64,000 nucleotides of DNA. Origin: Callorhinchus milii. Lineage: Eukaryota. Below the pieces are notes generated by a model. The model was not told where the DNA came from. It was given only the letters and a program-made list of their open reading frames with translations, and searched no databases. Made by a program: the position numbers and the translations under genes. The stretch's first letter is position 1; each line of letters begins with the position of its first letter. The DNA lies in contig NW_024704743.1 in NCBI RefSeq assembly GCF_018977255.1, forward strand, positions 18,540,001 through 18,604,000, given 5' to 3'. This document shows positions 14,101-52,746 of the stretch, one piece after another.

Positions 14101-14199
14101 CTCTTAGGCGTAAGAGTAAGCAACTTGCTGAGCTCCACACACTCTGGTGGATTTGCCTTTTGAGTAGCTAAGATTTGTCTTATTTGCTCCTTATTGACC
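14101..14199 (-). CDS. ST8SIA6: ST8SIA6-like copy A exon 2 (99 nt, stem)
   Basis: ttgttacag|G GTC AAT... = VNKEQIRQILATQKANPPECVELSKLLTLTPK(R), weak donor |gtcaaa, phase 2-2. Paralog at 39593-39706. Confidence 0.82.
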
Positions 14200-14596
14200 C
14201 TGTAACAAAAGAGTAAACAGTGATCAAAAGAGATTTTATGAACAATAATAACACTTGCCATAGCTCCTTTCACACCAGGTTGACAACTTAAAGCTCTTCA
14301 CAGAATTTACTGCAAAGTTTATTACCTGTGTATTTTGTAAGCAAATAATACAGAAGATTTTTCAATGCAGGCTTTTCATCTCCTTGCTATTAAGCTAGGT
14401 ATTGAATGATGGGCACAGCTAGGTCCAAACAATAGCAATATAATGAAAAACAGGAAGAGCAGCTTATCGGTATCGCTGACATTTAGCTCCAGTCACATGC
14501 AAATCACTCACATGCAGAAAGTAGGATTTTAACAGTACAATTATGCCTCTTTCGTCAACATCTTTTTGTTTGGTAAAAGCTGTTTTATTCACCTAC

Positions 14597-15140
14597 TACA
14601 ACAACAACAAAATGACATTTGTATAGTACCTTTCACGTCGGGAGGACGTCCCAAGGCATTGGACAGTCAGTGTTTCGGACTTGAACTGGGGCTTGGGATC
14701 AGGGAGGGTGGAGGGCAGTGGGGGAAGGAGGGTCATTGAAGGCACGGTCGAAGAGGAGGGTCTTGAGATGCGTCTTGAAGGAGGCAAGGGAGGGGGCGAG
14801 GCGGAGGGACTGCGCTATGTTCCAGAGTGTGGGGGTAGAATGGCTGAAGGCCCGCCCGCCAATGGTGGGACAGGCAAGGCGGAGGGAGCGGGTAATATGG
14901 TAAGGTTTAGGAGGTCGCAGAGGTAGGGTGAGCGAGGTCATGGAGAACCTTGAAGGTGAGGACCAGGATCTTGAACTGTATCCTCTGTGTGATGAAAAGC
15001 CAGTGGAGTCGGGTGACAGAGGCTGACAGAGTCATGGAGCCTGGTGTGGGAGAGGAACCAGGCTGCAGAGTTCCAGATGATCTGCAGCCTTTGGAGGGAG
15101 GAGTTGGGGAGGCCGACAAGTAATGAGTTTGCATAGTCAG
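14597..15140 (-). mobile_element. L2 LINE 3' fragment
   Basis: LHWL..RIQFKILVLTFK, GGRAFS...LWN...FKTHLKTLLF and the L2 tail. Confidence 0.85.
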
Positions 15141-15704
15141 ATCGTTAGCCAATTTGCACATAGCAGTATCCCAGAAACCGCAATGAAATGAAAGCCCAAT
15201 TTTATTTGGGGATTATTGGCCAGGACATTACATTACATACTAGACACAGAAGGAGATTTAATTTGCATTCATTTTCAGCTGTAAACTAAAGCATTTATGT
15301 GGAAATATGGCACTGGGGAAAATCTACCAGAACTGTGCCAGGAAGTGTAGTTTTTCCATAACCCCAACTTTGCTTCCTATTTACACACATTTTTGTTTTA
15401 AGGATTACATTTTTTAGAGATTATTTTCTAATGTGAATTTTAAAAAAAAACTTATTTTGAGGAAACATTAATATCCCTAAATTCTCTATGGTACAGTCTA
15501 AAAGCAACATAACATTACAATAACACAGAACAGCTAAATATTCATGTACGATTGCTTTTTTTTCTCTGAAAGCACTTCTGTTACAAATCACTCCTGCATA
15601 GATCTAAACAATTTGAATTGTTGAGTTTAGTTGTCAATTTTACAACATTGTCCCTCTGCATTTAAACAAACTCTACATTTTAACATTGAAAAAGTAAAAT
15701 ATAC

Positions 15705-15817
15705 CTGATGTAACTTAAACTGAAAGTCTTCACATCAGTTCGATTCATCAAGTTGAAGATCAAGCCAAAAAGAAAAATAATTCCTGTCACAATGACAAAA
15801 TAACTCCATAATTTCAT
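15705..15817 (-). CDS. ST8SIA6: ST8SIA6-like copy A first coding exon (proximal exon 1b; type II signal anchor)
   Basis: gcaacATG start, MKLWSYFVIVTGIIFLFGLIFNLMNRTDVKTFSLSYI(R) with a hydrophobic TM. Phase-2 donor AG|gtatat is compatible with exon 2. Confidence 0.85.
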
Positions 15818-17391
15818 GTTGCACACCGTGTAATATTTCAACAGCAAATTAAATCAATTATCTAATGACTGAGTGTGTGCAGCACATCGTTCATACACAC
15901 AAGACTTATCAGAGAGCTTTACGGAGCATCCTGTTAGAACTGAAACTGAAAACAAAACTCATCTTGAGGGGAAGTGTACTTATCTTTTTCCTTGAGTTCA
16001 TAATAGAACTCATTTGCAGGCATACAAATGTGGCTGTCTAAAAATGTGGCTGTTCCTTGATAGGGCCATATGTAGGGGTGAGCGTATACAACAACAACAA
16101 CAGCTTGCACTGATGACCTATTGAATCTGGTCAAGCACTTAAAGAAACATGTTATGAGTTTCCTCACTCACAACCCTTTTTGAGGAAAGAGGCTCCCTGA
16201 AATGTCGGTCTCCAGGATTTCTATTCATCCAAACAAGAGTCAAAAGGTATGGTTGTTGTGGGTAAACAGCTCCTGCCATGGTTGAGATACCTATCTTTTA
16301 CATCACCAGAAGTTCTTTTCTTCTGATGGGAAAAAAAAGGAATTAAAGAATGTAGGGTTAGAGTTAGGAGCTGCACCTTTTTTAGGTCACATAGTTAAGT
16401 GTGTGGGTGGGATGGTGTGGAGAGCAACATATGGGTCTGAAATACTGGTAGAACAACAACAACAACAAGATTACATTTGTATAGCACCTTTCACATCGGG
16501 AGGATGTCCCAAGGTGCTGGACAGAGTATAGTATTTCAAACCCGAGCTGGGGTCATGGGGAGAGAAGGAAGGAGAGGGGAAGGGGCGTTACCTTAAGACT
16601 GCTCTTTTAGAAATCCACAAAGTTTATATTCTAAATTAAATGGAAAATGTGCAGAGCATACTGAGGTTGAATCAGAAAAACAGGCTAAGACTCGGTAGAC
16701 TTTCAGACCTCAGTTTCCATATCTAATAATAATAATCCTTGTATTTGATATAACATCTCATCACATCGTCGAGACGTCTCAAAGTGCTTCATAGAATATG
16801 CTGTAAAGTGAATTGACTGTGTATTTTGTGGGCAAACCGCAGCAGTCAATCGCGCAGAGCAGTGTCCCACAGACAGTTGTGGATTGAGTGACCAAATTAT
16901 TATTTTTTTATTGTTATTTATTATTCTTTAAAAACAGGATTATTACCTCTGGAAAAGTGAGCCGCCAATCAAATAACAACCAGGTTCCTACTTACTGCTA
17001 GGTAAAGAGAGGAGTGTGGAGTAAGGAAACTTTTCATTTTGCCCTGCCTGGGAATCAAACCTAGGTCCTCTCGCTTGCAAGGTGAATGCTCTAACCACTA
17101 AGCTCCACATATTATTATTATTATTATATAACAAGATCACAACATTTGGGATTGGATGAAGAAGGCCCTTCTTATCTCATCCCTTCAGAATACCCACCAC
17201 ACTTGAAACTGCTTTCCAAATTAATCCAGTATTAATTACCTTCTGGTATCTGCCCTGAAATTGTCTTTTGGAAGGACACCTCTAAACCTATGCCCTCTTT
17301 TGCTACAGTTTTTGTGCCTCCTCAAGTATTGATTGGTGTTTAACATTTTACATACCTCCACAAGATGCCCTGAGATGCCACCACCACCCTT

Positions 17392-17430
17392 CACACACAC
17401 ACACACACATACACAAACACACACACACAC
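17392..17430. repeat. Imperfect (CA)n microsatellite
   Basis: Seen directly. Confidence 0.9.
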
Positions 17431-19099
17431 GTTTTATACTTCTTGGCAGTTCTGACTGTACAATGGGACCAACTGACATTTATCCATTGACCTTGACCTT
17501 GCCCGACTCAACTGGCTTCCCATCACTCAGAGGATACAGTTCAAGATCCTCTGGAACCCCACCTCTGGTCCAAAATACTGACTGTCCAGCACCTTGGGAC
17601 GTCCTCCCGACGTGAAAGGCGCTTTACAAATGTAATTTTGTTGTTGTTATGTAAATTGCACGTGTTTGGACATTGTTGACAACAGCAAAAAGCCTCAGCT
17701 CTAATGTCTTCCACAATCAATTTGTTTTCCAATACTCCCTTCACTAAATTCTACCTCATACCTTTGAAGTATAAATGCAATATTATGTGGCCTCAAAAAA
17801 AGCAACAAAAGGTAAAAAGATTTTTTTCTGTACAGAATGGTGTAATTACACCAATTTCACCTGAGCTCACTGCTAACTGTTTTTCTACATTGGTTTTAAA
17901 TTAGTTCCACATTTTAACGTTTTTATGGCAACAACAAATGTCACCAATAGTTAAGGACTGTGTATTTTTATGCTTTTAAAGTGCAAAACCTATCAAATAA
18001 TTGCAGCAAATTAGAACTAAATTGAATATAATTCTGGAATACAGCAGTTAACAGGTTTAACAAGCTGTTAATTTGTAGGCAGTTAATTAACACCCATGAG
18101 CTAAGACAGATGCTACAGCACATGGTACTGTATATCGGATAACAGTGTTGTAAGCAATATTGTTACTATATCAAATGATGAGAATGACTTGTAGAGGCTG
18201 TTGTGCTGGGGTTCAAAATATTTCTGAAGCACTTTACTAAAATAACTTTACTGGAGAACAATGTATATATTACAATACACAACGTGATTGTATTAGTTTT
18301 TTTTGGGTGCAATGTGTAAGAAATGTGCTTATCACAGCTGTAGCTCTCTTGTTAATTATTGATGTAACGGACCTGCATTGTTTTAATCAAATTCAGCTCA
18401 TGGATACCGTACCCAAGGGCGGTCTCAGCTTGTTCAAACCAACCTGTAAACAACTATCGGACTTGTGAGTATGTGCAGCTTCGCACAGACCATCCATCGT
18501 GATGTTAAAAAGAGACAATGATAAAAGAGGTATAGCTAAGCTATGCTTTGGTCAGTCAGAATTGGTCATATGAGCTATACAAATGTAATTTGTTGTTGCT
18601 GTTGTCGTCATGGTATTTGGACTGAGGTGGTGAGAGCAAGTGCATCTTTCACTTCCCATGCTCTGTGACAGCGCCACCGGATCTTGATTGTTCCTGTTAT
18701 TTCAGCGACATGAGAAGAAAATGAAAGAGAAGAATGACAAAATAGGAATTCAGCTGAAAAGAGAGAAGGATTTTTGTTTGCTTAATTCAATGTTATCATC
18801 AGCCTACCAATTCCACAGATAATGCACACTCATCTCAGAGAAACTAGAAGGAAGAGATCTTGAAATTTTTCACCTGTTGCTTATGAATTTATGAACTTTG
18901 ATATTGCCATTACAGTAACATTGCTGTACACTTGAGTATAACAGCCAATATTGTTGGTGTTAACGTGTCTATTGGTACTATGTTTATTGAACTAATGCAA
19001 CTATTCTGCCATATTAATTAAACAAGCTTTGAATATAAAACACAGGTGACTTTGGTTCCTCTGTTCACGAATTCTAATATATAAATTCCGGCAAACAGA

Positions 19100-21530
19100 A
19101 TAAGATGGTCTTTCAGATTTCAACACTGGAGAACTCCACTGCTAATCGTACATTGGAACCCAACATTTTGGGACCCCAGATGAACCAAAGTTCACAGATA
19201 AGAATATAAAAAAATGCTGGGTGTCAAATGGGAGGTGTGTTACAAAAGTGTTAACGCACTTAAGTTTATAAAAGCGTCAATACGTCAACTGTCACAAAGT
19301 TAAGGAGTCCTGGGTCCATGGCTGATCTCAAAGGGTATTATTAATTTGTAACCTGCACTGGAGGAATGCTGAATATGATACATGAGTTAATCAGTGAAGC
19401 TTCAGAAGGCTTAAAACGAAGCAAAGAACTAGAATAAGTAAAAAAAAAACTAATATTTATTAAGAATTAATAATAATAATCCTTGCATTTCTTATAGCCC
19501 CTGATCATGTTGTTGAGATGTCTCAAAGAACTTCACAAAGCAGTGACTGTGTATTTGGTGGCGAAATGTGACAGTCAATTGCAAATAGCACCCTCTTGAA
19601 CATAAGGTTGGAATCTTCTCAAATTGAGTCAATGACAAATTGAGTATGGTTAAACATGACAATTCCCAATTGCAAGAAGACAATGGCCAATTGCAAGGCA
19701 AGATAGATCAGTACTAGGCAAAGATAATCGCTGCAGATGATCGAGTACAAGCTCGGAGCAGTGAGTTAGGAAAATAATTGCTGACTGAGCGGGCCTTAAG
19801 AGAACCTCAAAGTTCAAATTTAGTGACTGGATCCGAAATACCTATACCAGATGCTGCCGCTGCTTTTATGCATCCCTCAAATGAATTAAAATATGTAGTC
19901 TCTAATGCTGGAATATTTAAGCCTGAAAAACAATCATGTTTTATGCATCTGAGATGTGTGCAGAGTGCTTGTCAATTATATGGGATCCTTGATGAAATGA
20001 ACAAACTTGTGGTTCTCCAAATGACACTGCCGTTAACCCTCTGGCATCAGTTACCTGTCAGACTATGCTCTGATGATCTAAATTATCAGGAAGTTTTTAC
20101 AGAACTGCAGACGCTCTGTAGTACAAGAACTTATAGAACTGCTTTGCCTCTGTTTACCAAGCAGGAATCTAATGTTCACCCTCAGGGTTTCTTAGAACGA
20201 TTTACTGATGTGTATACTTCTGGAAGCACCCAGAGGATCTTTATTTAAGCGATTATTATGAAGTAATCTAAGCTCTCCTATTAAAAGGCTAAATAGACAG
20301 GATTGTTACCTGTTGGAAAGTATAGTTAAGCTGCGATCAGATTTTTCTGAATATTATGATTAAGGAAGAAGAAAGGAAGCAGTCTAAGGAGGAACTTTCC
20401 TCGCTCTAAATCAGACAAGAATGAAGTAAATTTTGTACAAGGGACCTCGTGTAGTAGATGGATCAGACCCTCCACAAACTCAAAGGTGGAGAGAAATATT
20501 TAGGGGTTCACGGGAACAGTCCTGAGATTTTGATACCAGGAGTAATAGTCAATGATCATCGGGGTGCGATGAGTACGGTCCATTGGAAGTAGCTATGTAG
20601 GTTATAAGAGCACAATGGATAACCAGTCATCAAAATAAAGGAAGAAGAGGTAGAGGAAATTTTAGTGGTCAAACTTGTGGAGGTCCACAAGGTGTTACGT
20701 TTGACTCTAATCTCCTACCGATGAATATTTTGAATCAGGTACCAGACCTAAACCGGTATCAAAGGTATTGTGGCCAAACTTATGTGATTAATATTGAACC
20801 ATATGGTAAAGAGTCTGCAGCTCTGAGAGATTCTGGAGAAGCCATATCACTGATGTCACACGAGTTGCTGCTGTAGAATTTCATCCTGTATTATCATAGA
20901 GGCAACCTTGCCCCGCTGGACGTATTTAGTGGGACTCAACAGATGCCATAAGGGAAGGTACAGTTTTAAGTTCTTTTGGTTCCTATCGGGAACATTATTT
21001 TTAGATCAGATGTTTTAACCACTCTGGGATGTGTCACAGACTTCCCCATATTTTATGGCAACAGGATGAATTGAGGTTAATACTCCGGCTAATGCCCAGA
21101 GTGATGATTACTGTCCTTTGTCAGTGCTATACAAGCGCAATTTGCTGTTGTTAGTATCACTGAACTATCCCTGATGATTCTCAATGATAAGGGATATGTA
21201 ATTATTGTTTAATACCAAGAATTTTACAACATTTCTGAAAAATCTCTGCTGTGAAATGTGAGCTTCTATCCTAGTCTATGGGACAGTGGGAAACCCCAAT
21301 TAGTAAATTCTTGCGCCACCAAGACTCTGACCATTGTAAATGCTGAATTATCCCAGTAGGAATTGCCCCTATCCAATTAGAAAAAGAGACAATTATAACA
21401 AGGCTAAATGTATCCCCATTAGCTGTGGTTGGTAATGGACCTGTTTAATCAATTTGAATGTGAGACTATGGTCCGTCCTTTGGTACAGAACATAGAGGAG
21501 CTTCTGATCTTCTACGTATCGGATTATTTT
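19100..21530 (+). mobile_element. Highly decayed LTR-retroelement-like relic (gag-like ORF plus aspartic protease remnant)
   Basis: 156-aa ORF 19778..20248 extends upstream in frame through stops. YVINIEPYGKESAALRDSGEAISLM at ~20781-20855 resembles the retropepsin L-x-D-S-G-A motif. Boundaries uncertain and no LTR pair identified. Confidence 0.5.
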
Positions 21531-23399
21531 GCACACACAACAAACAATTTCACAGTATCTCCAAATATTTCTTGCGATTTTCGGCCATCACTGAAGTCCT
21601 CAAGCTCAGTAGTTAGCGCACTCCCCTCACAAGCGAGAGGACCTGGGTTTTATTCCCAGCAGGGAAAATCGTTGAGTAAGTTTCCTTATACTGTAAAATT
21701 AATTGACTGTATATTTGTGGGTGAAATGTGGCAGCCAATTGTGCACAGCAGAGTCCCACAAACAGTCATGGATTGAGTGACCAAATTATTATTATTATTT
21801 ATTTTACTTTTTTGAGGGATAATTAGCCCCAGAAAAGAATTCCGTCAATCGACTAACAATTGGGTTCCTACTTACTGCTACGTAAACAGAGGCATATGGA
21901 GTAAGGAAACTTGCCCAACATTTTGCCCCACCTCTCTTTTAGCAATAATATCCATGATTGATGATGAATATTTATATAGACCCAGGTATTAATCGGGTTG
22001 CATTTAAAAACAAAGAGGGCGAGACAATTGAATAGTGTTAAACCCTGTAATAGCTGTAAAGTGTTTAATCGCCCATACTGCAACAAGAAGATGTTTCTCA
22101 CATGTGTTCAATTTCATTTCTACTGGAGTACGGACTCGACTGGTATAAGCAATTGCTCACCCTTGGTCGTGTACTGTCTGTGAAAGGACTGCAGAATTAT
22201 GTGTATCAGAGCACTGTGGGGGGCGATGTATAAATGCAAGTTGTTGTTGTAAAGTGAAAAGGTTTTGAGAGATCTAGAATAGCTAAGCAAGCAGCAGTGG
22301 TTAGAGTCTTTTTCAGCTGCTGTACAGCTCCAATCTGTGCTTCATTCAACTCTCACAGAATATTTTGCTTTAACAATTTAAAAGTAATAATAATAATCCT
22401 TGAATTTGATATAGCGCTTTATCATGGCTTTCAGACGTCTCAGAGCTCCTCACAAAATATACTGTAAAGTGAATTGACTGTATGTATTTTGTGGGAATAT
22501 ACAGCAGCCTATTGCACACAGCACTGTTCCACAAACAGTTGTGGATTGAGTGACCAAATTATTATTATTTTTTTGAAGGGATTAATACTCCTGGAAAAGC
22601 GATCCGCCAATTGCCTAATAACTGTTTCCTACTTACTGCTAGGTAAACAGAGGCGCATGAAGTAAGTAAACTTGCCTAATGTTTAGCCCTGCCCGGGAAT
22701 CAAACCCAAGTCCTCTCGCTTGTGAGATGAGTGCTCCAACCAATACATTACAGTTTGTACAAAGGCCTCGCATGTTCGGCAAAATTTGGGACGAACTGAA
22801 GAGAAAATTCTGAATTACCATTCTGAAAATGGAACAAAGAGAAGTCAAATCCACTAGTTCTGGGATTATTAAAATAGTTTCCATCCAACCCAAAACGATC
22901 ACCCCAGGTGGTTTACTTTGTAAGTGGACAGGTTGGTTAGTATGTCACGAAGGTAGGGCGGAACAAGGTTGTGGAGGGCTTTGAAGTTGAGGACCAGGAT
23001 CTTGAACTGTATCCTCCGAGTGATGGGGAGCCAGTGGTGCCGGGCGAGAATGGGGGTGATAGGCTTCCAGAACCTGATGCGACATTGAGTTGCCAAACAT
23101 GGTCGTTGTATTTTACCCTGATCCACGTTTTTCTCATACCTCGGCTTAAATACCCACTGGTTGATGGACTCTCTGGCTCTTCCCCGTACTGATTATTCTG
23201 AACTATGCATCTCATGTCCTCTCCCACACCAAGCTCCGCTATTATATCACGTTGCTCAATTCCACTGGCTCCAATACCCCAGCAGATCAAATTCAAGATC
23301 CTCACGTCAACATCAAATCCCTTCATGATCTCACCACACCCTACCTCTGTAACCCCATCCCCATCCATCTCCTTACCTTCCAGCTCCACCTCCTCACCC

Positions 23400-24500
23400 T
23401 TCTTCTCTCTGACACCATCAATCTCTCCCTTTCATCTGGTACCAAACATTCCCTTCATGAGCCCCTCCAATCGGGGTTCCATGCGACTCACAGCACGGAA
23501 ACTGCTCTGGTCAAGGTGACAAGCGACATTTTGTTCATCTGTGACCAGGGCTCCCTCTGCCTCCTTGTCCTCCTCAACCTCTCTACTGCCTTCGATACTA
23601 TGGACCACTCCATCCTCCTCCACCGTCTCTCCTCTCACCTCAATGTTCAAGGCTCTGACCTTGAATGGTTCAGGTCTTATCTCTCACACCGCCACCAATT
23701 TGTCTCCGTCAATGGTTTCTCTTCCAGCCCTCACACAGTCTCATGTGATGTTTCTTAGGGCTCTGTCCTCAGTCCCCTCCTCTTCAACCTATACATGCTC
23801 CTCCTTAGTGACATCATCCGCAGATATGGGGTCAACTTCTACATGTACGCGGATGAAACCCAACTCTATCTCTTTGCCTCCACCCTAGATTCCAGGACTA
23901 CTGAGGTCCTGACAGATTATTTGTCTGACATCAATAATAATAATAATAATAATAATAATCCTTGCATTTGATATAGCGCTTTTCACGTCGGGAGGACGTC
24001 CCAAAGTGCTTCACAGAACACACCGTAAAGTGAATTGACTGTATATTTGTGGGCGAACGCGGCAGCCAATTGCGCACAGCAATGTCCCACAAACAGTTAT
24101 GGATTGAAAATGACCAATTTATTATTGTTTTTGGTTTTGGAGGGATTATTATTAGGCTCTGTGTGGAGTAAGGAAACTTGCCCAAGGTTTCGCCCTCTGC
24201 CTGGAATTGAACTCAGGTCTCTCGCTTGCAAAGCGAGTGCTCTAACCACTGAGCTACAGGACTCTTCAGTTGTTTTGTATTAACACTCTTCTGTTTTTTT
24301 GTATTAAATACAGGAATGGCTAAAGCCACTTTTTATTGTCTTTCCAGCTGCAATATGAGTAATGGCGTAATCGAGTCCTGGATGAGAGCCAACTTTCTAC
24401 AGCTGAATGTCAGCAAGACTGAGACCCTCCTGATCGGCTCGTGCCAGTGCTTCAGCATCTCAGGAACTGGCAGCATCAGCATCCACGGTTGCATCAGCAT
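23400..24500 (+). mobile_element. L2 RT fragment interrupted by a SINE
   Basis: QSGFHATHSTETALVKV, LLNLSTAFDTMDH, degenerate [23 protein letters not shown]. Confidence 0.88.
23933..24265 (-). mobile_element. Full-length young tRNA-SINE
   Basis: Same family as 10895-11225, long (tta)n tail. Confidence 0.9.
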
Positions 24501-25670
24501 TCCGCATGAAAACGATCACCTGCTCCCTCGAACCCATCCCTAGCCCTTTCCTTACTTCCCAGATCCACCTCCTTGCTCACTGACATCATAAACCTCTCCC
24601 TGTCCTCTGGTAGTTTTCCCTAGCCATTAAAAACTGCCTCCTTCAAGACCCTCCTTTTTGACTGTGCCTTCAGCCAACCTCCTACCTCCTTTATCCTCCC
24701 TCATCCCAACCCTGCCCTCCATGCTCGGGTCCTGATCCCTGACAGTTCAGCGCCTTGGGACGTCCTCCCAGCATGAAAAGGGCTTTACAAATGTAATTTT
24801 ATTGTTGTTGTTGTTCATTCCTACCAATCCAGCCATTCCCTTCTCTCAGTAAACACTGCCTTGCTTCTTGTCCCCTACAGTATTAGCCCACCATCAGAAG
24901 GTGGGCAATCAGCCATTCTATCCCACTCTCTGGAAGTCCAACCCATAATCCCTTCAACTCGCTGACTCCCTCTCCTCATTTCAGTGCTCGTCTCTTTGAC
25001 CACTCTTTTGGTCATCTTTCCTTTCCCCACCCCCTTCAGCTCCCAACCACAGTTCAGGTATGCAGCCAATATTGTCAAGCGGTTCGAGCCATTCTAAATT
25101 CATAAATGACAATTGTATTGTATTATTGTATTATACTTTAAACAAGTTGATAGTTTTCTGTATTTATCAGACACCTGGCTGACCCAAAAAAATTCAGCTT
25201 GAGGCAAATAGTTTGCTGAATCTTTTAAACGGTATTTTGGCTTTGTTCTGAAAGTGCTCAAAATCGCATACATTTACAGTTCTTCAGCTTTCCACCAACC
25301 GTTAATGCTGTGTTTCCTAAGCTCTGAGTCCATTTACAATAATGCGGTGGATCAGGCTACACTTCTCTACTCTTTCAGTACCCCTGCCAGATCAAAGTCC
25401 TGAAGGTGTGCGAAAATAGCTTTGATACAGTTTGCATGCTTATCCTACCTTGACTAAGAATAATTTGCACAAACAGCTTTATACAGTACCTCTGCTACCA
25501 AAACTCACATTGTTCCATGACCAGAAAAAAACAATGCAACATAAAAATTATACTATTGTGCAGTAACCAGTCAACTCCACCAAACGTGTATTCTAACCTT
25601 TTTAGGTAGCAAGCTACAAGAGTTTAAAATTAAATTAAATTTAAAATAACATTTAAAATAAAAAAAGTAT

Positions 25671-26032
25671 CTAAAATATTGTGGCTTAATTGTATTCAAC
25701 CAGCCTGCAAAATAGCCCAAACCAAACAATATGCAAATCCAGGCAGGGCGAAACCTTGGGCAAGTTTCCTTACTCCACACGCCTAATAATAATCCCTCCA
25801 AAAAAACAAAACAATAATAAATTGGTCATTTTCAATCTATGACTGTTTGTGGGACATTGCTGTGCGCAATTGGCTGCCGCGTTCGCCCACAAATATACAG
25901 TCAATTCACTTTACAGTGTGTTCTGTGAAGCGCTTTGGGACGTCCTCCCGACGTGAAAAGCGCTATATCAAATGCAAGGATTATTATTATTATTATATAT
26001 TATATCCAAAACAAAGTCTTCCTCATTGTCAT
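25671..26032 (-). pseudogene. Disrupted distal first exon (1a) of copy A
   Basis: ATG at 26032 gives MTMRKTLFWI then TAA inside an inserted SINE (~25742-26003). It resumes as WICILFGLGYFAGWLNTIKPQYF(R). The donor reads AG|atac versus AG|gtat in copy B. Homolog of 33057-33151. Confidence 0.88.
25742..26003 (+). mobile_element. 5'-truncated young SINE inserted in exon 1a of copy A
   Basis: ggcagggcgaaaccttgggcaag...aaatgcaagga(tta)n, flanked by atcca at 25737-25741 and 26004-26008. Confidence 0.9.
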
Positions 26033-27973
26033 GTTGCTCCTTATGTAAATTGTGTGCTTAAAAGTGTTACTATTCTCTGTGTTGTAAAAACCTCACTACA
26101 AATAAGCCAAAAATACACTGATATTGCAAGTGAATGGATCCTTCTTGAAACTGGAAGTTCCAGTTCTTAGTCTTGCAGCAATTCAGGAAATTCCTACCAC
26201 TTTCAGATGCAAATTAACCTGGGTGGGTTTTATTTAGTCATAGATTTTCAGCATTTACCGTTTTCTGTGTCCAGTTTTTGTATATTTTCCCAATATGTTC
26301 TATCTAAGAGGCTGAACAGGTACAACTGAAATAACTGATGATGCAACCTGTGCAGGAAATTTTAAACCCTGGTTATCAACCCACGAAGACCTTTCACAAT
26401 AAATACAATCTTTGTATTCGATATAGCGCTGTATCAGGTCTTTGAGACATTTCAAAAGATTTAACAGAATATACTGGAAAGTGTAAGTGACTGGGTGTTT
26501 GGGGGCAAAACGCAGGAGCCAATTGTGCACAACAGTGTCCCAAAAAGAGTTGTGGATTGAGTGACCAAATTATTTTTATTATTGTGTTTGAACGTTTTTT
26601 TTCCCCTGGAAAAGTCTAATAACTGGGGTCTTCCTTCCTGTTAGGTAAACAGAGTTGTGTGGAGCAAAGAAACTTGCCTAAGGTTTCACTGTACAAATCA
26701 AAGAAAATTTACGGTAATAATAATATTTTCATTTGATATATCGCCTCTAATGTTCAAAGATCGCAAAGCCTTTTACAGAGGATTGCTGCCAAGTGTGGTG
26801 ATTGCATTTATGGACTTAAAAGCACTCTTCTGTTTTTTTTGTAATAAATACAGGAATGGCTAAAGCCACTTTTTATTGTCTTTCCAGCTGCAATATGAGT
26901 AATGGCGTAATGAGTAATGAGTAAAGTACTGGCGCTAACTCATGTGTATCTCTCCAGTCTAATTTTAATCTTTTACTTATGACTCCAGATGTTTTCTCAA
27001 TAATTCTTCTATCAATGTGAGGGATGTGTGAAGTCGCCCTTCCCTTCAGAATATTACTTCATCTATGTATTGATGTCATAAAACTTTCAACACAATTATG
27101 TCTTATCATTCTCTCGGGTGTCGAAACCAACCTTCGCGATTTTTCCGATTGACTAACACATAACTTAGAGTGGAAAAAACTGGCAACTATGCCTAAAATT
27201 AATCATCAGCTCTCAGTCATTTTTCTAGTTCTGCAGCTGTTACGTTTGCAGGACTCAGAAAGAAATATGTTTGTCTGGAATGAGGGGAGTTGTCAGTGTC
27301 AAAAGACTTTCCAATCCCCACCCCCTTTCTCTGTGACTTTCTAAACCCTATCAACCTGCCTGTTCCCTTCGCTTGGCGGGCATTGGCCTGCTTCACATCC
27401 CCAGCCCTGCCCGCCCGCCCCATCATCGGTGTTTATGTCTTCAGTCTTTCCGCTTCCACCTCTGGAACTCCTTTGGCTCCTTCAAGGTCCACCTCAAGAA
27501 CTTCCTCTTTGACCATGCCTTTGGTCATCTTCCCACCCGCAACCAGACACCAACTTGTTCAAAACTTCGCTGTCCGCATTCTCACTGGCTTGTTGAATCA
27601 AAACGAGGCAAGACCACTCAAAAATGGTAGATGCCCTTTCATAACCGATCCTCTGATGCCGCCTCTGACTCAAGGTTCTTGTCAGGAAAAGTACTAAATT
27701 AAAACTTATGGATTGAAAGGCAAATCGGGAAGCTGGATTGAAACCTGCCACCCCATCCCGTACATATCTCTCCCTGTTTGGGCTGGATTAGCTGCATAGG
27801 ATTTGAAGGCTCAGCCACTGACGATGGTGCAGAGAGGGCAAGTGATATGCAGTAACCGCGAATTAGCTGAGCAGAGATGGCAAACACTGGAGTAGGGTAA
27901 GAGGTGATCGTAGAAATAAGGGAGTGGACAGATTTGGTCACCCTAGGCTAGGAGCTTCACAGCCACTCTAGTG

Positions 27974-28228
27974 GAGTCATGTATTTCAGTGGTTAGAGCA
28001 CTCGCCTCACAAGCGAGAGACCTGGGTTCGATTCCCAGCAGGGCAAAAAATGTTGGGCAAGTTTCCTTACTCCATACGTCTCTGTTTACCTAGCAGTAAG
28101 TAAGAACTCGGTTGCTAGTGGACTGGCGAATCACTTTTCCTTCAAAAAAAAGTATATTCCATGAAGCGCTTTGAGATGTCTTGAAGATGTGATAAGGCAC
28201 TATATCAAATGCAAGGATTATTATTATA
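27974..28228 (+). mobile_element. tRNA-SINE, internally deleted
   Basis: A/B-box-like head tcagtggttagagc...gggttcgattccc and the SINE tail. Confidence 0.8.
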
Positions 28229-31200
28229 TTGGAGGAGGGGCATGGGGAAGTATGGGGAGGTTTGGTGCTGCTCTAATGAGGTGGGGGGGGGGGGGGGGGG
28301 GTTAGGTGATTTGCCTAAAACAATGCTTAAAATGTCTAAGAGTTGGACATTATTTTAGTGATGTCAAAATTAGCTCTGAACCATCTCCCATGTACATTTT
28401 TAATTCAGCAACAATTCTTAATAAATATATTATATCATGTAGTATTAATATTATATTATTGTTATTTATATGATAATTGATCAATTGATTTATCAGCTTG
28501 TTTGTACATACTAAATTTGCCAATTACCTCACTTGTTGTATTTCAGGATCATGTCATTTTAAGACTTTTATTTCCTGTTTATTTTCATTTTATTTCATTT
28601 ATTTGGGCAAAGATTGTAAATGTTTACATTATTGTGTTAAAATTTATTTAGATTTATATGAAATGGTTTATGTATTGTACATATTACTATTACAAGCCTT
28701 GGTTCTTGCAAACCTTCACCGAATACTCTCTTGAACTTTGATAATCCTTGCATTTGATAATCCTTGCATTTCATATTTTGTCATTGAAACATCTTGAAGC
28801 ACTTCACAAGATTTTACTGTGTCGTGATGGTCTTTGTAGATTAGCGTAGCAGTCAAATTGCACACCACAATGTCACATAAACAGCCATGTAGTGAATGAC
28901 CAATGTTTTATCTGGGGTGGGGATTGTTGTCCATGATACCCTTCTCAAATAGTGTCATGGGATCTTTCATGTCCACCTGAACAGCAGACAGAACCTCAAT
29001 TTCATCCCATATTTGGCACCTCCAACAAAGCAGCAAACATCCAGCATTGTATTGGAGAGACAGCCTAAACTGTGAGGTCAAAGTCTCCAGTTAAGGACTG
29101 AACAACCTTCTGATTCAGAGGCAAGAATCCTACCAGTTAAACAATTTTTTATTGACGTCAGCCAGTCTTGGTTAAGCAGGGTGTGTTCCTCCAAGGGAGA
29201 GTGTGCATTCCATTCTAGATAATAATTCCATTCAATTTACAGTGAAATTTCCATAAGTAGATGGTATAGATATCCGGAACATTTTGGTTTGGATACACTG
29301 TAGTTACTTCTAAGTACAATTTTGTTACTCGGCTTCTCACTCCCCAATCACAACAATTAGTTGTTGTGTTAAATTCTTGACTTGTGAGAAACTGTTAGGA
29401 GAAGCTGGACTCCTGTAGGTGAATGTTAATTCATGGAATTAATGCTGAGTTGCTACAAACTGCTCTGAGAGGGAAATCTTACTTTGTCAAGCCAGGAACC
29501 CCCAACTACCCTTGGAGCTGCCCTTCTAGCCTTGGTCAACAGGATTCTTTCTGAGGCTCGTACTCTGTCAGTGATCCAGAATGCAATTGTGGTTTCTATC
29601 CACAAGAAGGGTCACTCTTGTGAGACCGAGAGTTACAGACGAATCTCATGGATTTCAGTGGGCTCTTAAAGTGGTGCTTTGGATGTGTATCGTACACATT
29701 CTTGACTCATCATTTGATCAGGAAGGCTGACTTCCGTTCTCTTGCCACATTCACCTACATAATTACTGCAATTGACATTAAATCCTGATAAGCGCTTTGT
29801 TCATGATGTGATAAGGCATGTTATGAAGTTCAAGGATTATTGTTCGTCATTGTACGCAATACAAAAACTAAAGTAATTACCACACATGTTTTAGATTCAG
29901 TATTGCGGACTACAACTTTTACCTCCAGGTCTGCTGATGTTCTGTCAGTTTTAGAGTGAGAAGGAGTGCAAACTTCTTGCAGATAAATGTCGATAAGACG
30001 GAAGCTATACTCCTTGGATCCTGTCAATATCTTTCTCCTGTGGCTCTGACCTCTTCAACCTCCCCGGCCTGTGTCTCAGACTCACCAAACCTAGGTGCAA
30101 CCTAGGAGTCAGATTCAACCCACAGATGTCCATCCTTCCCCAATCCGGTCCCTGACCAGAACAGCTTTCCTCCACCTCCAATACATTGACCGCTTCTTAC
30201 CAAACACAGCCGAAACACTCATCCATGCATTCATCACCTCCCACCTTGACTATTCGAATGCTCTCCTCACCGGTCTCCCCAGCTTCACTATCCACAAAAT
30301 CCAACAGATACAAAACTCCATCACCGCACTGAACTCAGTGCCCCCATCACACCAGTTCTAATCAGGCTCCACTGGCTGCCTATCACTGACTGAACGGTCA
30401 CCTCCCCACTCCCCCCGGCTCAGTGTCGTGCTCCGCCACTGTCAAGAGCTCTGGGACGCTACTCGGAGTGAGGGGTGCTGTATGAATGCAAGTTACTTAT
30501 TACTTATTTAGCGATGTCACTCCAAATTGTCCAAAGTACATTTAGAAAAAAGCGACCTCAGTTACAATGTTTACAATCTGCAATGTTGAGACCTGCAACA
30601 ACTGCAGAAATGCTGGAAATACAGAGGGCAACAGCAACAATTACTTATTTTCTTGACATATTTTACACACTCAATGGGAAGCCGGGCTGCAGGTTGGTGG
30701 GTGGGGGGGCTGAAGAGGGGAGGGGAGGGGAACACTGAAAACACAGTGCAAGAAATGGATCTAAAGGTGGGTTTTGAAGGCTCAGAGTGAGGTAACAAGG
30801 AATAGAGTTTCAGAATGGGGACAGATTGGCTGAAGGCTTGGAGGCAATTACACTTGGGATGTGAAGCAGGGTGTTATCTACGTCAGTCAGCTACATAACC
30901 ATTGTGGTTATTTTGTGTGTTTGCAGAACAATGCTGGTTTCTGAATAAATAATGTTCTGTAAACAATTGCTAAAAAAAAGTGACACAGAGAGGGTTAAAC
31001 ATTTCCAGCTCTCCTACACAACTTTTGTAGAAGCACGATCTTTGTCTACGTTGGTTTCGCTAAACTTTCATTCCTATTGTTCTATCTAATCCTGAAATCA
31101 ATATTTGGCAAAGGTCTTTAACTATAGGGTCTTGTCGAATTCTGTAGGTGTGTTTCTTGCCACATGACATTTGAAGCAAAGTTACTCAGCTAAATAAATA

Positions 31201-32849
31201 CAAGATGTTAGCTGATACATGAGGTAACCCAGCCTGCCAGACATCAAGTCCTGGATACAATACACATCACATTACAATTTATATTTTAGGAATAATAATT
31301 AGTACAATGCCTTTCGCATTGGGAGGACATCGCAAGGCAATAATAATGGCTTGGCACCTGAGCTGGGGATGGGAGCCGCTGGTGGGGGAAGTGGAAGATG
31401 ACTGAAAACACAGTCAAAGAGGTAAGTCTTGAATGAGATGAGGGAGGTAGTTTCTTTTCCCTCTCCACTGTCTTCAGTCCCCACCAATCATTATTGCTCC
31501 AGGCCATGCTCTGACTATTATTCACTGTCACACAGAACAGCATCATGAAACAGACTGCCCCTTCCAATTCTTTGTGTGTCTCTGACAGATGAGATCCATT
31601 GGCTTGTTAGAAGCAAGCTTTGAACATGTTTGCTTTCGATACAGTCATGTTTAGTCTTGAGGCAAACCTTGAAGGAGGCAAAGGGACTCTACTGTGGGGC
31701 TCCAGAAGTGGGGGCAGAAAGACTTAGACAAGACCGCCGATGGTGTGGCAGGTAGGGTGGGGGACATGAAGCAGGCTATTGCCTGCCAAGTGGAGGGAGC
31801 GGGCAGATTACTAGGGTTTTCGAAGGTTGCACAGAAAAGAGGTGTGGGGGGTTAAGAATTTAGAGGGTCTTGACATTGCCAACTCCCCTCGCTCCAGACA
31901 TGCATATTTCTTTCTGAGTTCCGCAATCTCAACAGCTGCAGAAGTAGGAAAATGTCTGAAAGCAGATGTCTAATTTCAGGTTCACAGCTTCTGCCACTGT
32001 AAACTGGGTGTTGCTTGGTTGGAAAAATCAAGAAAGTTTTGACATCCGAGAGTAAGATAAGTAATTGTGTTAAATGAGCTATGACCTCAATGCATGGATG
32101 AAGTAATATTGTGAAGGGTAGGGCGACTTCACACATTCCTCACATTGACTGAAGCATTATTAGCAAATATCTTAAGTGAAAGATTAAAATTAGACTGGAG
32201 AGATACACATGACGTAGTGTCACAACTTGAGCATGACTCATATTGCAGCTGGAAGGACAATAAAAAGTGGCTTTAGCCATTCCTGTATTTAATACAAAAA
32301 AAAGAAAAGTGCTTTTAAATCCATAAATGCAATCACTACACTTGGCAGCAATCCTCTGTAAAAGGCTTTATGATCTTTGATATATCAAATGAAAATATTA
32401 TTAGTATTATCGTAAATTTTCTTTGATTTGAACGGTGAAACCGTAGGCAAGTTTTTTTACTCCAAGCAACTCTGCTTACCTAGCCAGAAGGAAGAACTCA
32501 ATAATTTGGTCACTCAATCCACAACTCTTTTTGGGACACTGTTGTGCACAATTGGCTCCTGCGTTTTGCCCACAACACCCAGTCACTTACACTTTCCAGT
32601 ATATTCTGTTAAATCTTTTGAAATGTCTCAAAGACCTGATACAGCGCTATATCAAATACAAAGATTGTATTTATTGTGAAAGGTCTTCGTGGGTTGATAA
32701 CCAGGGTTTAAAGTTTCCTGCACAGGTTGCATCATCAGTTATTTCAGTTGTGCCTGTTCAGCCTCTTAATGGATCATATTGGGAAAATATACAAAAACTG
32801 GACACAGAAAGCCAAACGGTGAATGCTGGAAATCTATAACTAAGTAAAA

Positions 32850-32870
32850 CCCGCCCCGGTTAATTTGCAT
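32850..32870 (+). promoter_or_regulatory. GC-box plus octamer (CCCGCCCC...ATTTGCAT) ~200 nt upstream of exon 1a
   Basis: Motif match only. The octamer is also present in the other arm (ATGCAAAT 26207-26214). Confidence 0.3.
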
Positions 32871-33056
32871 CTGAAAGTGGGAGGCATATCATGAATTGCT
32901 GCAAGAAAAGAACTGGAACTTCCAGTTTCAAGAAGGATCCATTCACCTGCAATATCAGTGTATTTTTGGCTTACTTGCAGTGAGGTTTTACGGCATAGAG
33001 GATAGTAACACTTTTAAGCACACCATTTACGTTTAGTGGACTGTACAAGGAGCAAC

Positions 33057-33151
33057 ATGACAAGAAGGAAGAGTTTGTTTTGGATTTGTATATTGTTTGG
33101 TTTGGGCTATTTTGCAGGCTGGATGAATACAATTAAGCCACAATATTTGAG
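33057..33151 (+). CDS. ST8SIA6: ST8SIA6-like copy B first coding exon (distal exon 1a; type II signal anchor)
   Basis: gcaacATG start, MTRRKSLFWICILFGLGYFAGWMNTIKPQYL(R): basic cytoplasmic tail plus TM. Phase-2 donor AG|gtatgt. Joined with the six downstream exons it gives a 1125-nt open frame. Confidence 0.82.
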
Positions 33152-33674
33152 GTATGTTTCTTTTTTTATTTTAAACATTATTTATAAATTTAACTTTAAA
33201 CCATTGTAGTTTGCTACCTGTGGATAATTTTTGTCTAGTTGCTTACATTCGATTTCAAGATTCTCTCACTCGTTCTCAAATCCCTTCAAGGGCTCGCAAA
33301 TCCCCACCAATCTGACCTGCTTATCCCCCACTCCACCACCCGCTGCCTCCGCTCAGCTGGCTCCGGCCTCCTGTTCGTCCTTTGTCCCTTCCGGTCCACC
33401 ATCGGTAGCCATGCCTTCAGCTACTATGTCTCGAAACTCTGGAACTTCAAATCCAACCTTAAAAACCTTCCTTTTTGATTGTGCATATGGTGACCTCCCC
33501 ACTCCCTCTTCCCCTGGCTCGTTGTCAGACTCCGCCATTGTCAAGCGCTCCTGGACACCACCCTGTGTGAAGGGCGCTAAATGAATGTAAGTTGTTATTT
33601 TTAAAACAAAAACTTGCAATACATGTTTAGTGGAGTTGACTGGATTCTGCACAATAGTATATATATATATATTT

Positions 33675-34234
33675 TTAAGCGGGGTCTCCTTGGAGCTGAA
33701 CTATCTCCAAGGTGACATGCTTGGCAACGGAATGTCGGAATTGAGCCAGCCATCCGTGGCTGTCTCGGTAGTCCGGTTCCTGAGCCAGGCGGGTCCACAG
33801 TATTCCAGGGCAGACCTGGAAGGTCAGACCAATCACTCGGGACAGGGAATCCTTCCACTTAGCTCTTGTTACCCCTGCAAGCCAAAGCCCTAACAGATAG
33901 GGTAGTCCTAGCTGGACAAGCAGCGGGAAAGCTTGCCAGACAGCAATTTCAATGGCAAGCTATGTGGTTTTAGTTGGTTGGACTCCAGCTGTACCCCCAT
34001 GCAAACTCTATGGTCCACAAGCCTTGACTCTTGCTTGCCCACCAGCACCTAATACTTACCGGAATTAGGTAAGCAGGATGCATCCCTCCGGGGAGAGAGA
34101 GAGCATTACAACAATCTATCTCTGGGATTTCTATGTGTAGGTGGGATGCATGGAATTATCAGTTTGGTTTGGACACTCTTTAGTATGGTGATGGGTTTCC
34201 ACATGTGTCAGCCAACCAACTGCATCTAAAAAAA
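33675..34234 (+). mobile_element. Unclassified interspersed repeat (~550 bp family)
   Basis: Starts ttaagcggggtctccttggagctgaact and ends gtttccacatgtgtcag...A-run. Related pieces at ~3075-3400, 5385-5790, 12625-12900, 45741-46066, 47810-48020, 54350-54630, 58240-59121. Confidence 0.7.
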
Positions 34235-34959
34235 TGTTTCACGTTGCACTGTTTTTTTCTGGTCATAGAAAAATTTCAGTTTTAGTAGCAAAGGTAATGT
34301 ATAAAGCTGTTAGTACAAATCATTCTCAGTGAAAAAATATTGGGATAAGCATACAAACTGTATCAAAACTGTTTTTGAATACCTATGGGACTTCGCAGGA
34401 ACTGAAAGACTTGGAGGGACATTGCTGTGTGCAACTGGTTGCCAAGTTTCACCCACAAAATACACAGCATTATTTATGTGTGTCAATGATGCCTTCACTC
34501 TTGTTTCCAGAACCACTGTAGTTAGCGTACTTCAACTGAATGTCAACAAAGCCAAATCCAATGCATTATGAATCATTGGAAGTTTCACCACTACTTTTTC
34601 TTGCTGTAGGAAATACTTGGGTCAATTCCAAAACAACCAAATTAAGATATAATTAGGCCAACCAATAACGTTCGCCCACAAATATACAGTCAATTCACTT
34701 TACAGTGTGTTCTGTGAAGCGCTTTGGGACATCCTCCTGACGTGAAAAGCGCTATATCAAATGCAAGGATTATTATTATTATTATTGGCACAAATGTGGA
34801 TATTAATCCCATGCCTGCAGGTGATATCTCCAAGAAAGGTATACAAACAAGGAAAGGGAGTTGACCAAGAATAGAGCTTTGAGGTATACCGCAAATGATT
34901 ATGCAAATGGGGGAGAACAGAAATATAAAACAACAATAATAGTAACCCTTGCATTTACT

Positions 34960-36440
34960 CCACCTCCTTGCCCCTCTACTCACAGACATCATAAATCTCT
35001 CCCTGTCCACTGGTACTGTTCAAACCCCATTAAAAACAGCTGTCATCACTCTTATCTTTAAAAAACCTTCCCTGGACCCATCACTGCTCTTAAACTACCG
35101 CCCCATCTCCAACCTCCCTTTCCGATCCAAGGTGTTATAATGAGCTGTTGCTTCCCAGCTTCACTGCTTCCTCTCCCACCACTCCCTTCATGAACCCCTT
35201 CAATCCATGCCGCCCATAGCACAGAAACAGTCCTGGTCAAAGTGACAAATAACATCCTGTCCATCTGTGACTAGGACTTCCTCTGCCTCCTCATCCTCCT
35301 TGACCTCTCTGCTGCCTTCAACACCGTTCTATCCTCATCCACCGCCTCTCCTCTCACCTCAACTTTCACGGCTTTGTATTTGAATGGTTCAGATCGTACC
35401 TCTCGCACCCCCTCCTCTTAATTTCTCTAAACGGTTTCTCCTCTAGCCCCCACACCATCTTGTGCGGCTTCCTTCAGGGCTCAGTACTTTGTCCCCTCCT
35501 CTTCAATATCTATATGCTCTCTCTTGGTGACATCATCCACAGACATGGGGTCAACTTCCACATGTATGCGGATGACACCCAACTGTACCTTTCTGCCTCC
35601 ACCCTTGACTCCAGGACCACTGCTGTCCTGACTGAATGTCTGTCAGACATCGAGTCCTGGATGAGAGCTAACTTTCTTCAGTCGAACGTCAACAAGTCCG
35701 AGGCCCTCCTGATTGTCTCCCGTCAGCGCCTCCTCACCTCAGGCGTTGATAGCATCACCATTCAAGGATGCACATTCCACCTTGCTAAGCCAGTCCAAAA
35801 CCTTGGTGTCTTGTTTGACCCTCAACTATCCTTTCTACCCTCCATCCATGCCTTGTCCGGCTCTGCCTTCCCCCACCTCCGCAACATCACCCGGCTCCAT
35901 CACTGTCTTACACCCCTGGCCACCGAAACCCTCATACATGCTTTCATTACATCAAGGCTCAACTATGGAAACTCACTGCTTGTCGGCCTCCCCAACACCT
36001 CCCTCCATAGGCTGCAGATCATCCAGAACTCTGCAGCCCGTATCGTTCTCCCGCACTAGGCTCTGCGATCCTATAACCCTCATCCTCGCCCAAGTCCACT
36101 GGCTTTCCATCGCACAGAGGATACAGTTCAAGATCTGTTCAAAGCCCCCCATGGTCTTGCTCCCCACTACCTCTGCAACTTCTTAACCCTTACCAACCTG
36201 CCTGCTCCATCCACTGAGGGGGCTCCGGCCTGCTTCACGTCTCCCACCTTGCCTGCTCCACTGCCTTCTGCCACTCTACCCCCACCCTCTGGAACTCCAT
36301 CCCGCAGTCCCTCCATCTCACCCCCTCCTTCATCACCTTCAAGGCCCACCTCAAGACCCTCCTCTTTGACCGTGCTTTCGATCTCCCTGCTTCCCCCCCT
36401 GCCCTCCCCCATCCCCCACCCTGACCCTCAGCTCGGGTCC
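34960..36440 (+). mobile_element. Longest L2 ORF2 (reverse transcriptase) relic in the window, frameshifted
   Basis: KKPSLDP...NYRPISNLPF, QGSVLCPLLFNIYM, YADDTQLY, NLGVLFD, HAFITSRLNYGNSLL (ORF 35460..36059). Confidence 0.92.
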
Positions 36441-36619
36441 GTAACTGTTGTGTTGTTGATACCTTGCATCCTTGTCATTGGTACAAGTGTATAACACTGT
36501 GTATTTTGTGGGTGAGATGCGGCAGCCAGTTATGCGCATCAATGTCCCAGAGTCGTGTTGTTGAGATGCTTCAAAGTGCTTCCCGAGATGTACTGTATAT
36601 TTTGGATCCCCCAATTGCC

Positions 36620-36955
36620 CTTTATAAAGCCTTTATTACCTGTGTAGCTACTTTCAGAGATTTGTTGATCTGCATCTCTTTGCTCCTCTACTCTTAGATT
36701 TTATCATCCAGACTATAAGCGCTTTCTTTATTTTTCCTTGCAAGTGAATTACTTCATATTTTCGTATGTTAAACTGAATTTGCCTCTATCTTCTCATTCT
36801 GCTAACCTATTATGTTTTGTTGCATTATTCTGTAATTCCCTTCACTGTTTACCATGTCCCCCCAGTTCCATCTGCAAATTTTGACAGCACACCTCCTATA
36901 CCTGAATCCAAATCATTTATGTATATGGTGAACAACTGCAGTCCTAATACAGACA
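36620..36955 (-). mobile_element. CR1-type RT fragment
   Basis: SVLGLQLFTIYINDLDSGIGGVLSKFADGT (degenerate FADD). Confidence 0.7.
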
Positions 36956-38029
36956 GTGAGGAGGCAAGGAATTGGTCTGTCCTAGAGGTGCCAGTGCCTG
37001 CTGAAGCAACGACTGGATTGGTAGAGTTTGAGAAGATTGCAGGCACCATAGGGTGAGGCGAGACCTTGGAGGGATTTAAAGATTAGGATGAGGATTTTGA
37101 ACTCGAGCCAATGGGGGATGGGGAGCCAGTGAAGTTAGACAAGGTTGGGGTTGATAGGTCCGGGAGCCTAGTGCAGGAAGGAAATGAGCTACAGAGTTCT
37201 GTATGATCTGTAGCTTGAGGTGGGCAGAGTTGGGAACTCCAGCAATCATCAGAACAGCATTGAAAGACTCCTCTCAACTGGTAGCAGTTTAGCCCAGTTT
37301 TTCCTGTTTTTGTTCTTGTAAAAAGATGCAAACTTTGCAACATTGTCTTTGGTATATAATAATAATAACAATCATAATAATCATAATCATAATCTTCGCA
37401 TTTGATATAGTGCTTTTCACTTCTATGCAGGCAGGTATTGCTCTGAGTTATGCAAGGAGGATGGAGAGGAAGGGCCAATTGAGTTGAGAAGGTGCATATT
37501 TTCTTTTAGGTCAGGTGGGTGTGTCACATGTGTGGAGACCTATCTTCATGCTTAAGGATATCCAAACCAGAGAGTTGCATATATATGTATGTTACCTAGA
37601 CAGGAAAATTCCTTGTGTCTGGAATGAAATGTACATTCTATAATAATAAGAATTATTATTATTATTATTATTATTAAAATTAGCTGTACCCTTTGCAGCT
37701 ACGTCTGATCCACCAAATCCTGCCTACACGCAGGCTGCCTCATCTATCATCCACAGTGCCCTGAGGTACTGACCTACCTGACACAGGAACCAAATTACCA
37801 AGACCTCCACAGAGGATTGACTCGATTCTGATGTTCCATTGCCAAGCTCCTCACCATGGAGCGAGTCCTGCTCTGTAAAACTCTAATCCATATCTTTATC
37901 ACCTGAAGGTTAAATTTCTCCAGTGGTGCTCTTTGCCAAAATCCTTTGCTTCATTCTTCACACGCTCACGTCAAAGTTCTGCTGCCCATGATCATTAAAT
38001 CTCTCTGGTCTCTTCATCAGTCTGCTGTT

Positions 38030-38220
38030 GTCTTGTTTGTGTGAACGATGTGCTCCACACACTGTTGTTGATAGGGAATTGTGTTATTAAGTTTTAATTT
38101 GCTGTTGGGAGAGCTAAAAATGAGTGAAAATTAAATCTTCTGCTGTGTCTAGTATTAGTGAATCAAGTAAAGTGCTGGCCAATAATCTCCAAATAAAAAT
38201 TGGGTTTTCATTTCATGGCT
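38030..38220 (+). pseudogene. Deletion scar of proximal exon 1b in copy B
   Basis: 38030-38107 matches the reverse complement of ~15839-15906 (upstream of copy A's ATG). 38112-38220 matches the reverse complement of ~15181-15280 (intron). The intervening ~560 bp containing exon 1b is absent. Confidence 0.8.
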
Positions 38221-39592: not shown

Positions 39593-39706
39593 GGTGAATA
39601 AGCAGCAAATAGATCAAACCTTAACTACTCAAAATAAAAATAATTTGAAGCCAAATCCACCAGAGTGTAAGCAGCTCAGCAAGTTGCTTACTCTTATCCC
39701 TAAGAG
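39593..39706 (+). CDS. ST8SIA6: ST8SIA6-like copy B exon 2 (114 nt, stem)
   Basis: ttgttacag|G GTG AAT... = VNKQQIDQTLTTQNKNNLKPNPPECKQLSKLLTLIPK(R), donor |gtaaaa. Confidence 0.83.
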
Positions 39707-52740: not shown

Positions 52741-52746
52741 AATAAA
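52741..52746 (+). promoter_or_regulatory. Candidate polyadenylation signal of copy B
   Basis: AATAAA 155 nt after the stop. Alternatives at 53721 and 53848. Confidence 0.35.

Follow-up and report, generated by a model that had tools for sequence, protein, structure and literature searches.

When a gene carrying two alternative first exons is duplicated, what becomes of the two beginnings? The question is raised by a 64,000-nucleotide stretch of the genome of the elephant shark, Callorhinchus milii (contig NW_024704743.1, positions 18,540,001 to 18,604,000; this whole stretch is hereafter the window, and positions are counted from its first base). It holds two intact seven-exon st8sia6 genes arranged head to head: copy A on the minus strand, running from 15817 to just past base 1, and copy B on the plus strand at 33057-52586. 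A first-pass annotation had proposed that both arms once carried two first exons encoding signal anchors, a distal exon 1a and a proximal exon 1b, and that each gene has since kept only one of them. We find traces of both first-exon loci in both arms, and confirm that exon 1a has been lost in copy A and exon 1b in copy B.

Reciprocal loss of the two signal-anchor exons

Copy A begins with an intact exon 1b (15705-15817, minus strand) of 113 nt, which has an ATG start and a GTAT donor and ends in phase 2; the model built on it is identical to the database protein P0002 (375 amino acids, no internal stops). Copy B begins with an intact exon 1a (33057-33151, plus strand) of 95 nt, likewise with a GTAT donor and ending in phase 2, and its model is identical to P0001 (XP_007896374.1; 374 amino acids, no internal stops). 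Both exons had been called intact in the first-pass annotation and had been said to fit exon 2, which starts at 14199 in copy A and at 39593 in copy B.

The lost exons have left clear remains. Exon 1a of copy A (25671-26032, minus strand) is interrupted by a young, 5′-truncated short interspersed element (SINE) lying antisense to the gene (25742-26003, plus strand) with a 5-nt target-site duplication, and its donor at 25670-25669 reads AT instead of GT. Both lesions had been predicted, and there is in addition a stop at codon 11. With the insert set aside, the dead exon differs from exon 1a of copy B at six of 95 positions (94% identity). In copy B, exon 1b has been deleted and its flanks fused at ~38108-38112, as had also been proposed: the scar (37988-38252, plus strand) consists of the 5′ flank up to 38107, about four filler bases and the 3′ flank from 38112. 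The 5′ flank (37988-38107) is 89.9% identical over 119 columns to copy C, a third gene outside the window that is described below, and the 3′ flank (38112-38252) is 83% identical to 15280-15147 of copy A; the intervening segment of copy A (15281-15838, minus strand; ~558 nt), including the whole of exon 1b, is absent from copy B. When the 1a region was searched against the genome as DNA, three matches came back, namely copy B and the two halves of copy A, and the 1b region gave two, in copies A and C; matches so limited in number argue that the exon pattern is not due to chance. Copy B is the sole carrier of an intact exon 1a in this search.

Assembled contigs from runs presumed to be RNA bear on both live exons. 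Fourteen sequencing runs were listed for 52100-53000, ten of them only guessed to be RNA; four (X1, X2, X3 and X5) were aligned as assembled contigs to 14060-33900, a stretch that does not extend to exon 2 of copy B, and no DNA run served as a control. One X5 contig (record 25) joins 15784-15704 to 14198-14099 without mismatches, so that the predicted junction 15705>14199, between exon 1b and exon 2 of copy A, is seen in one contig of one run. A retrocopy is an unlikely source of this contig, because the 1b region is found only at copies A and C in the assembly. One X2 contig (record 16) matches 32987-33152 without mismatches and then continues for nine letters unlike the genome at the donor side. 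From this single contig of a single run the donor of exon 1a in copy B is apparently used in splicing; this bears out the donor half of the expected junction 33151>39593, the partner exon lying beyond the mapped stretch. No joint from the dead exon 1a of copy A is among the joints listed, where SINE matches swamp the site and leave evidence neither way. X1 record 1, which starts at 14202, fits exon 1b and unspliced intron alike and was set aside. The X1 and X5 contigs that cover the stem-encoding exon 2 of copy A (14101-14199) stop matching the genome at its non-consensus donor GTCAAA (14095-14100), which suggests that this donor is in use.

A third copy, branching order and probable gene conversion

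A genome search, together with 154 kb of joined context, located a third full gene, copy C (P0021), on the minus strand at window-relative positions -24386 to -43321, in the same orientation as copy A and inverted with respect to copy B. Copy C has an intact exon 1b with the same donor as that of copy A and lacks exon 1a, the 1a region matching only copies A and B in the genome DNA search. Downstream of copy C lies fragment D, what is left of a fourth copy, with exons 3 and 4 in decayed form (-46929 to -47095 and -55751 to -55893). Two database models, P0018 and P0019 (UniRef A0A4W3JBJ3 and A0A4W3JRG4), combine the beginning of copy A with the end of copy C, either because the annotation joined them wrongly or because splicing reads through from one tandem gene into the next.

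The arms of copies A and B are collinear from 27499 and 31655, on either side of an unduplicated spacer (27500-31654), to beyond exon 7, and are 87.8% identical over 13,138 aligned columns; because this collinearity extends from upstream of exon 1a past exon 7, both exon loci lay inside the duplicated unit. It is likely, but not proven, that copy C split first, giving the order (A,B),C. In 2,664 three-way intron columns copy C has 236 private changes, copy A 137 and copy B 120. In addition, copies A (11954-12624) and B (40301-41024) share an insertion resembling a long interspersed element (LINE) at the same site in intron 2, before exon 3, where copy C has an empty site and fragment D has a deletion. 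The two inserts are only ~74% identical by BLAST, which argues against recent conversion as the reason for their sharing. If this order is correct, the ancestor of copies A and B held both exon 1a and exon 1b intact, since copy C has an intact exon 1b. The proposal of an ancestor with both exons intact is thereby strengthened; its further part, a single gene that used both, finds no such outgroup among the ray and skate records.

Probable sequence exchange between the arms complicates the dating of these events. The region upstream of exon 1a in copy A (26033-27050, minus strand) is 91-94.5% identical to copy B and contains an old repeat whose versions in A and B share 98.3% identity, against at most 81% with other copies of the repeat, for which reason the region has probably been gene-converted recently; the closeness of the two exons 1a can therefore not date the loss of that in copy A. 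Intron patches of 95-99% identity between A and B (9311-10856 versus 42403-44305, and 3305-3504) are consistent with repeated conversion of one arm by the other, and one such patch has received independent insertions of young SINEs, at 10903-11225 and 43049-43367. Within the 154 kb context, the six copies closest to the SINE in the dead exon 1a match it at 95-96.5% identity, compared with 88% identity for A/B non-exon DNA, which indicates that this SINE arrived well after the duplication of A and B.

Exons 1a and 1b probably go back to an old duplication of a single ancestral exon, since they resemble one another in DNA sequence and both resemble the first exons of rays and skates. Scored against shuffles in which the ATG and donor were held fixed, exon 1a gave a z of 2.8 against exon 1b of copy A (11 of 2000 shuffles as high) and of 3.3 against that of copy C (0 of 2000); the similarity of the peptides to six ray and skate first exons is modest (z 2.2-3.9 for 1a, 1.1-3.7 for 1b of copy A). 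The best 19-residue mean hydropathy is 1.43 for 1a, 2.35 and 2.56 for 1b of copies A and C, and 1.79-2.62 in rays and skates. Between 1a and 1b, neither arm contains a remnant of exons 2-7 by the same search that found exons 3 and 4 of fragment D, a result that speaks for a single gene having two first exons and against two separate genes. Upstream of exon 1a, an octamer motif lies ~190 nt away in copies A (26207-26214) and B (32863-32870); motif matches also place a putative GC box upstream of exon 1a in copy B and a 10-mer resembling an interferon-stimulated response element upstream of exon 1b in copy A only.

Proposed origin and partition of the anchor exons

The account that we favour, with moderate confidence in it as a whole, would begin in the chimaera lineage, where the single signal-anchor exon of st8sia6 would have been duplicated in tandem to give a distal 1a and a proximal 1b in front of one gene body. 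Local multiplication may then have proceeded by a direct duplication that produced copy C, which acquired or retained 1b alone, and by a later inverted duplication of the whole gene, with both exons, into copies A and B. Copy B lost 1b through the ~558-nt deletion, and copy A lost 1a through the donor change and the late SINE insertion, lesions that can be seen directly in the sequence. The outcome is three single-anchor genes, with 1b in copies A and C and 1a in copy B, which alone still encodes an enzyme anchored by 1a. Both losses were probably passive and came at different times, and we propose that each could be borne while an adjacent gene still supplied the isoform in question. The resulting partition of isoforms resembles duplication-degeneration-complementation (DDC) taking place inside a cluster subject to gain and loss, but it was probably not the original reason for the preservation of the copies.

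Several observations weigh against this account. Gene conversion can shrink the distance between copies A and B and refresh the dead exon 1a, and the donor change in that exon carries no date. A protein tree built without exon 1 is a trichotomy (approximately unbiased test, p 0.39 for A+B and 0.48 for A+C), the full-length tree with exon 1 included places copy A with copy C at 92/73, and fragment D, with 2/4/2 informative sites in 618 columns, does not order the copies. The first exons have too few sites for substitution rates to be informative: non-synonymous (dN) and synonymous (dS) divergence are 0.19 and 0.25 for 1b between A and C, and 0.063 and 0.086 for 1a between A and B. No outgroup gene with both anchor types was found among ray, skate and shark records, and no second chimaera sequence turned up. 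Finally, the interval between 1a and 1b (9.4 kb in copy A, 3.6 kb in copy B) has no unique DNA common to the two arms over most of its length, so that large deletions could have erased another gene body.

This last point bears on an origin of exon 1a that we consider unlikely, in which 1a was the first exon of an older tandem paralogue upstream of a 1b gene, the body of that paralogue was deleted, and copy B adopted the orphaned exon on losing 1b; the corollary, that no single gene made both isoforms for long, is doubtful to the same degree. Besides the divergent interval, the presence of partial copies in the cluster (fragment D with only exons 3 and 4, copy C without 1a) would fit such a history, as would the ray and skate records, in which each gene has a single anchor type and a chromosome carries several genes. 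Against it, the interval contains no remnant of exons 2-7, and the dead exon 1a is so close to its counterpart in copy B, with a frame open apart from the SINE, as would be unexpected of an unused orphan, although conversion could explain this.

The first-pass annotation had cast the reciprocal loss as DDC subfunctionalization. In its strict form, this explanation assigns 1a and 1b to different tissues or Golgi positions and holds that copies A and B each became indispensable, and so were preserved, through complementary loss; we regard it as rather improbable. In its favour, the losses are exactly reciprocal, both genes keep open frames, in exons 2-7 dN (0.066) is lower than dS (0.100) between A and B, and the anchors of 1a and of 1b in copy A differ in hydrophobicity. 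In exon content, copy B is the only carrier of 1a, but copy A is not the only carrier of 1b: copy C also encodes a 1b-anchored enzyme, and strict two-copy DDC therefore does not describe the cluster. The SINE in copy A is moreover young relative to the duplication, and sharks and rays hold several copies of the gene too. The ray and skate records with an anchor are all of a single type, and no recognisable anchor is present in the shark models. Heterodontus, Hemitrygon and Amblyraja have several 8F-like records per chromosome, which suggests that st8sia6 duplicates readily without any partition of anchors. The reciprocal loss itself thus stands, and DDC as the reason for the survival of the copies is weakened. 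Less probable still is that 1a and 1b, instead of being first exons with promoters of their own, are mutually exclusive internal exons following a shared, unseen non-coding exon, so that only a splice choice was partitioned. Acceptor-like sites do lie 60-200 nt upstream of each ATG, none of the four ATGs has a TATA box within 330 nt, and the 5′ ends of isoform models in rays differ, some models entering the anchor exon part-way. Such acceptor sites are, however, at chance level, occurring in about half (0.50) of 2000 random 330-nt windows, and copy C shows no homology to copy A beyond ~150 nt upstream of 1b and yet has a full database model.

Gene identity and significance of the cluster

The remaining exons of copy A (minus strand) lie at 11740-11826 (exon 3), 7437-7581 (exon 4), 4671-4783 (exon 5, in which sialylmotif L begins), 2781-2870 (exon 6) and 1-455 (exon 7, which ends 26 nt outside the window). 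Those of copy B (plus strand) lie at 39593-39706 (exon 2), 41134-41220 (exon 3), 44836-44980 (exon 4), 46463-46575 (exon 5), 50036-50125 (exon 6) and 52106-52586 (exon 7); the last exon is 100% identical to P0001, the best of 16 matches among 235 candidates. Part of copy A at 18050-21590 is a dispersed repeat, and none of seven open reading frames between and around the exons has a Pfam match. All three proteins match PF00777 (Glyco_transf_29; E-values 3e-64 for B, 2e-61 for A and 1e-60 for C), contain the motifs NPSI and GFWPF, which are given as ST8Sia family motifs in the accessible text of PMC6387029, and have a hydrophobic stretch starting at residue 6-9, a predicted type II signal anchor that is weakest in 1a. 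They are thus predicted members of the α2,8-sialyltransferase family (GT29), enzymes for which type II topology is described in the available part of PMC10225777.

Vimentin lies on contig C2 at 18.457 Mb and a PTPLA/HACD-family gene at 18.61-18.62 Mb, with the st8sia6 cluster between them. VIM and HACD1 are neighbours of human ST8SIA6 as well. A CACNB gene whose best matches are beta-2 follows at 19.05 Mb on the same contig, and CACNB2B is among the st8sia6 neighbours listed in the section of PMC6387029 that was available. This vimentin/HACD/CACNB2 block supports copies A, B and C as st8sia6 co-orthologues by position, in keeping with the ST8SIA6-like identity first assigned to them, and counters the suspicion that they might be ST8Sia VII or otherwise not ST8SIA6. 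In a protein tree of 46 rows the three proteins form a clade with eight shark and ray proteins (support 99/100), and the link of this cartilaginous-fish clade to tetrapod ST8SIA6 is an open fork. A DNA-methylase search for TRDMT1 returned nothing on contig C2, and a nebulin-repeat search nothing on contigs C2 or C23.

The cluster also corrects the elephant-shark ST8Sia inventory. A single elephant-shark st8sia6 is among the six 'milii' matches in the available part of the PMC7014012 supplement, and the 'ST8Sia6' of PMC6387029 and PMC7014012 is P0144 (contig C23:27820-38694), which is not copy A, B or C. P0144 lies 39 kb from a CACNB gene (C23:77846) whose best match is beta-1, and in the 46-row tree it stands at the head of a clade of 12 shark and ray rows (support 90/98). 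The gene st8sia8 lies beside cacnb1; with a beta-1-like CACNB next to P0144 and the window cluster in the CACNB2 block, P0144 may be st8sia8, a gene described as lost in cartilaginous fish in the accessible portions of PMC6387029 and PMC7014012. A deposited elephant-shark 'ST8Sia V', P0051 (NP_001279920.1 / CAM35867.1), looks chimeric: its residues ~101-148 match exon 4 of copy A (7437-7581), residues 186-219 best match a locus on contig C5, and the rest matches C1:137.29-137.32 Mb. The same sequence occurs in the part of the PMC7014012 dataset that was available.

The process at work here is already known from other systems, and the value of the cluster is thus that of an example, not of a new principle. 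In fish, alternative first exons and promoters of one mitf gene were split between mitfa and mitfb by differential degeneration (PMC3677685, summarising Altschmied et al., 2002), so that each duplicate matches one isoform; that case involves genome duplication, a mammalian single-gene outgroup and demonstrated differences in expression, whereas st8sia6 offers a local inverted duplication, three copies, membrane-anchor exons and no known outgroup using both. In fungi, each duplicate of SKI7/HBS1 and of PTC7 lost one ancestral isoform, and the PTC7 isoforms differ in subcellular targeting (PMC3597508), as is proposed for the two anchors of st8sia6; these are splice choices backed by functional tests and many outgroups, while the st8sia6 case is built on sequence and two contigs. 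Pea aphid follistatin is likewise a three-copy family whose duplicates keep one ancestral alternative promoter, with the difference that its promoters are tied to a phenotype and st8sia6 is known from genes and contigs alone (PMC11874257). The cluster agrees with vertebrate ST8Sia VI, a mono-α2,8-sialyltransferase (PMC6387029), in its GT29 domain, NPSI and GFWPF motifs, type II anchor and CACNB2 block, and differs in having three tandem copies and two anchor types. We found no published description of it in a literature search whose coverage excluded subscription journals, and regard it as a new, clean example of isoform partition.

As such it is an unusually legible fossil, in which both dead loci and their lesions can still be read within a few kilobases of each other and the third copy provides an outgroup from within the cluster. 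The cytoplasmic tail and transmembrane segment of type II glycosyltransferases influence their position in the Golgi, and the cluster supplies ready-made pairs of anchors with which the control of sialyltransferase position by these elements could be tested. It is conceivable, although we hold it only tentatively, that chimaeras first gave one ST8Sia VI two Golgi addresses, through the short, weakly hydrophobic 1a with its basic tail and the longer 1b, and then assigned one address to each gene. If so, copies A, B and C would constitute a natural experiment, with catalytic domains that are almost the same at work in different Golgi cisternae or tissues, where they would sialylate different acceptors.

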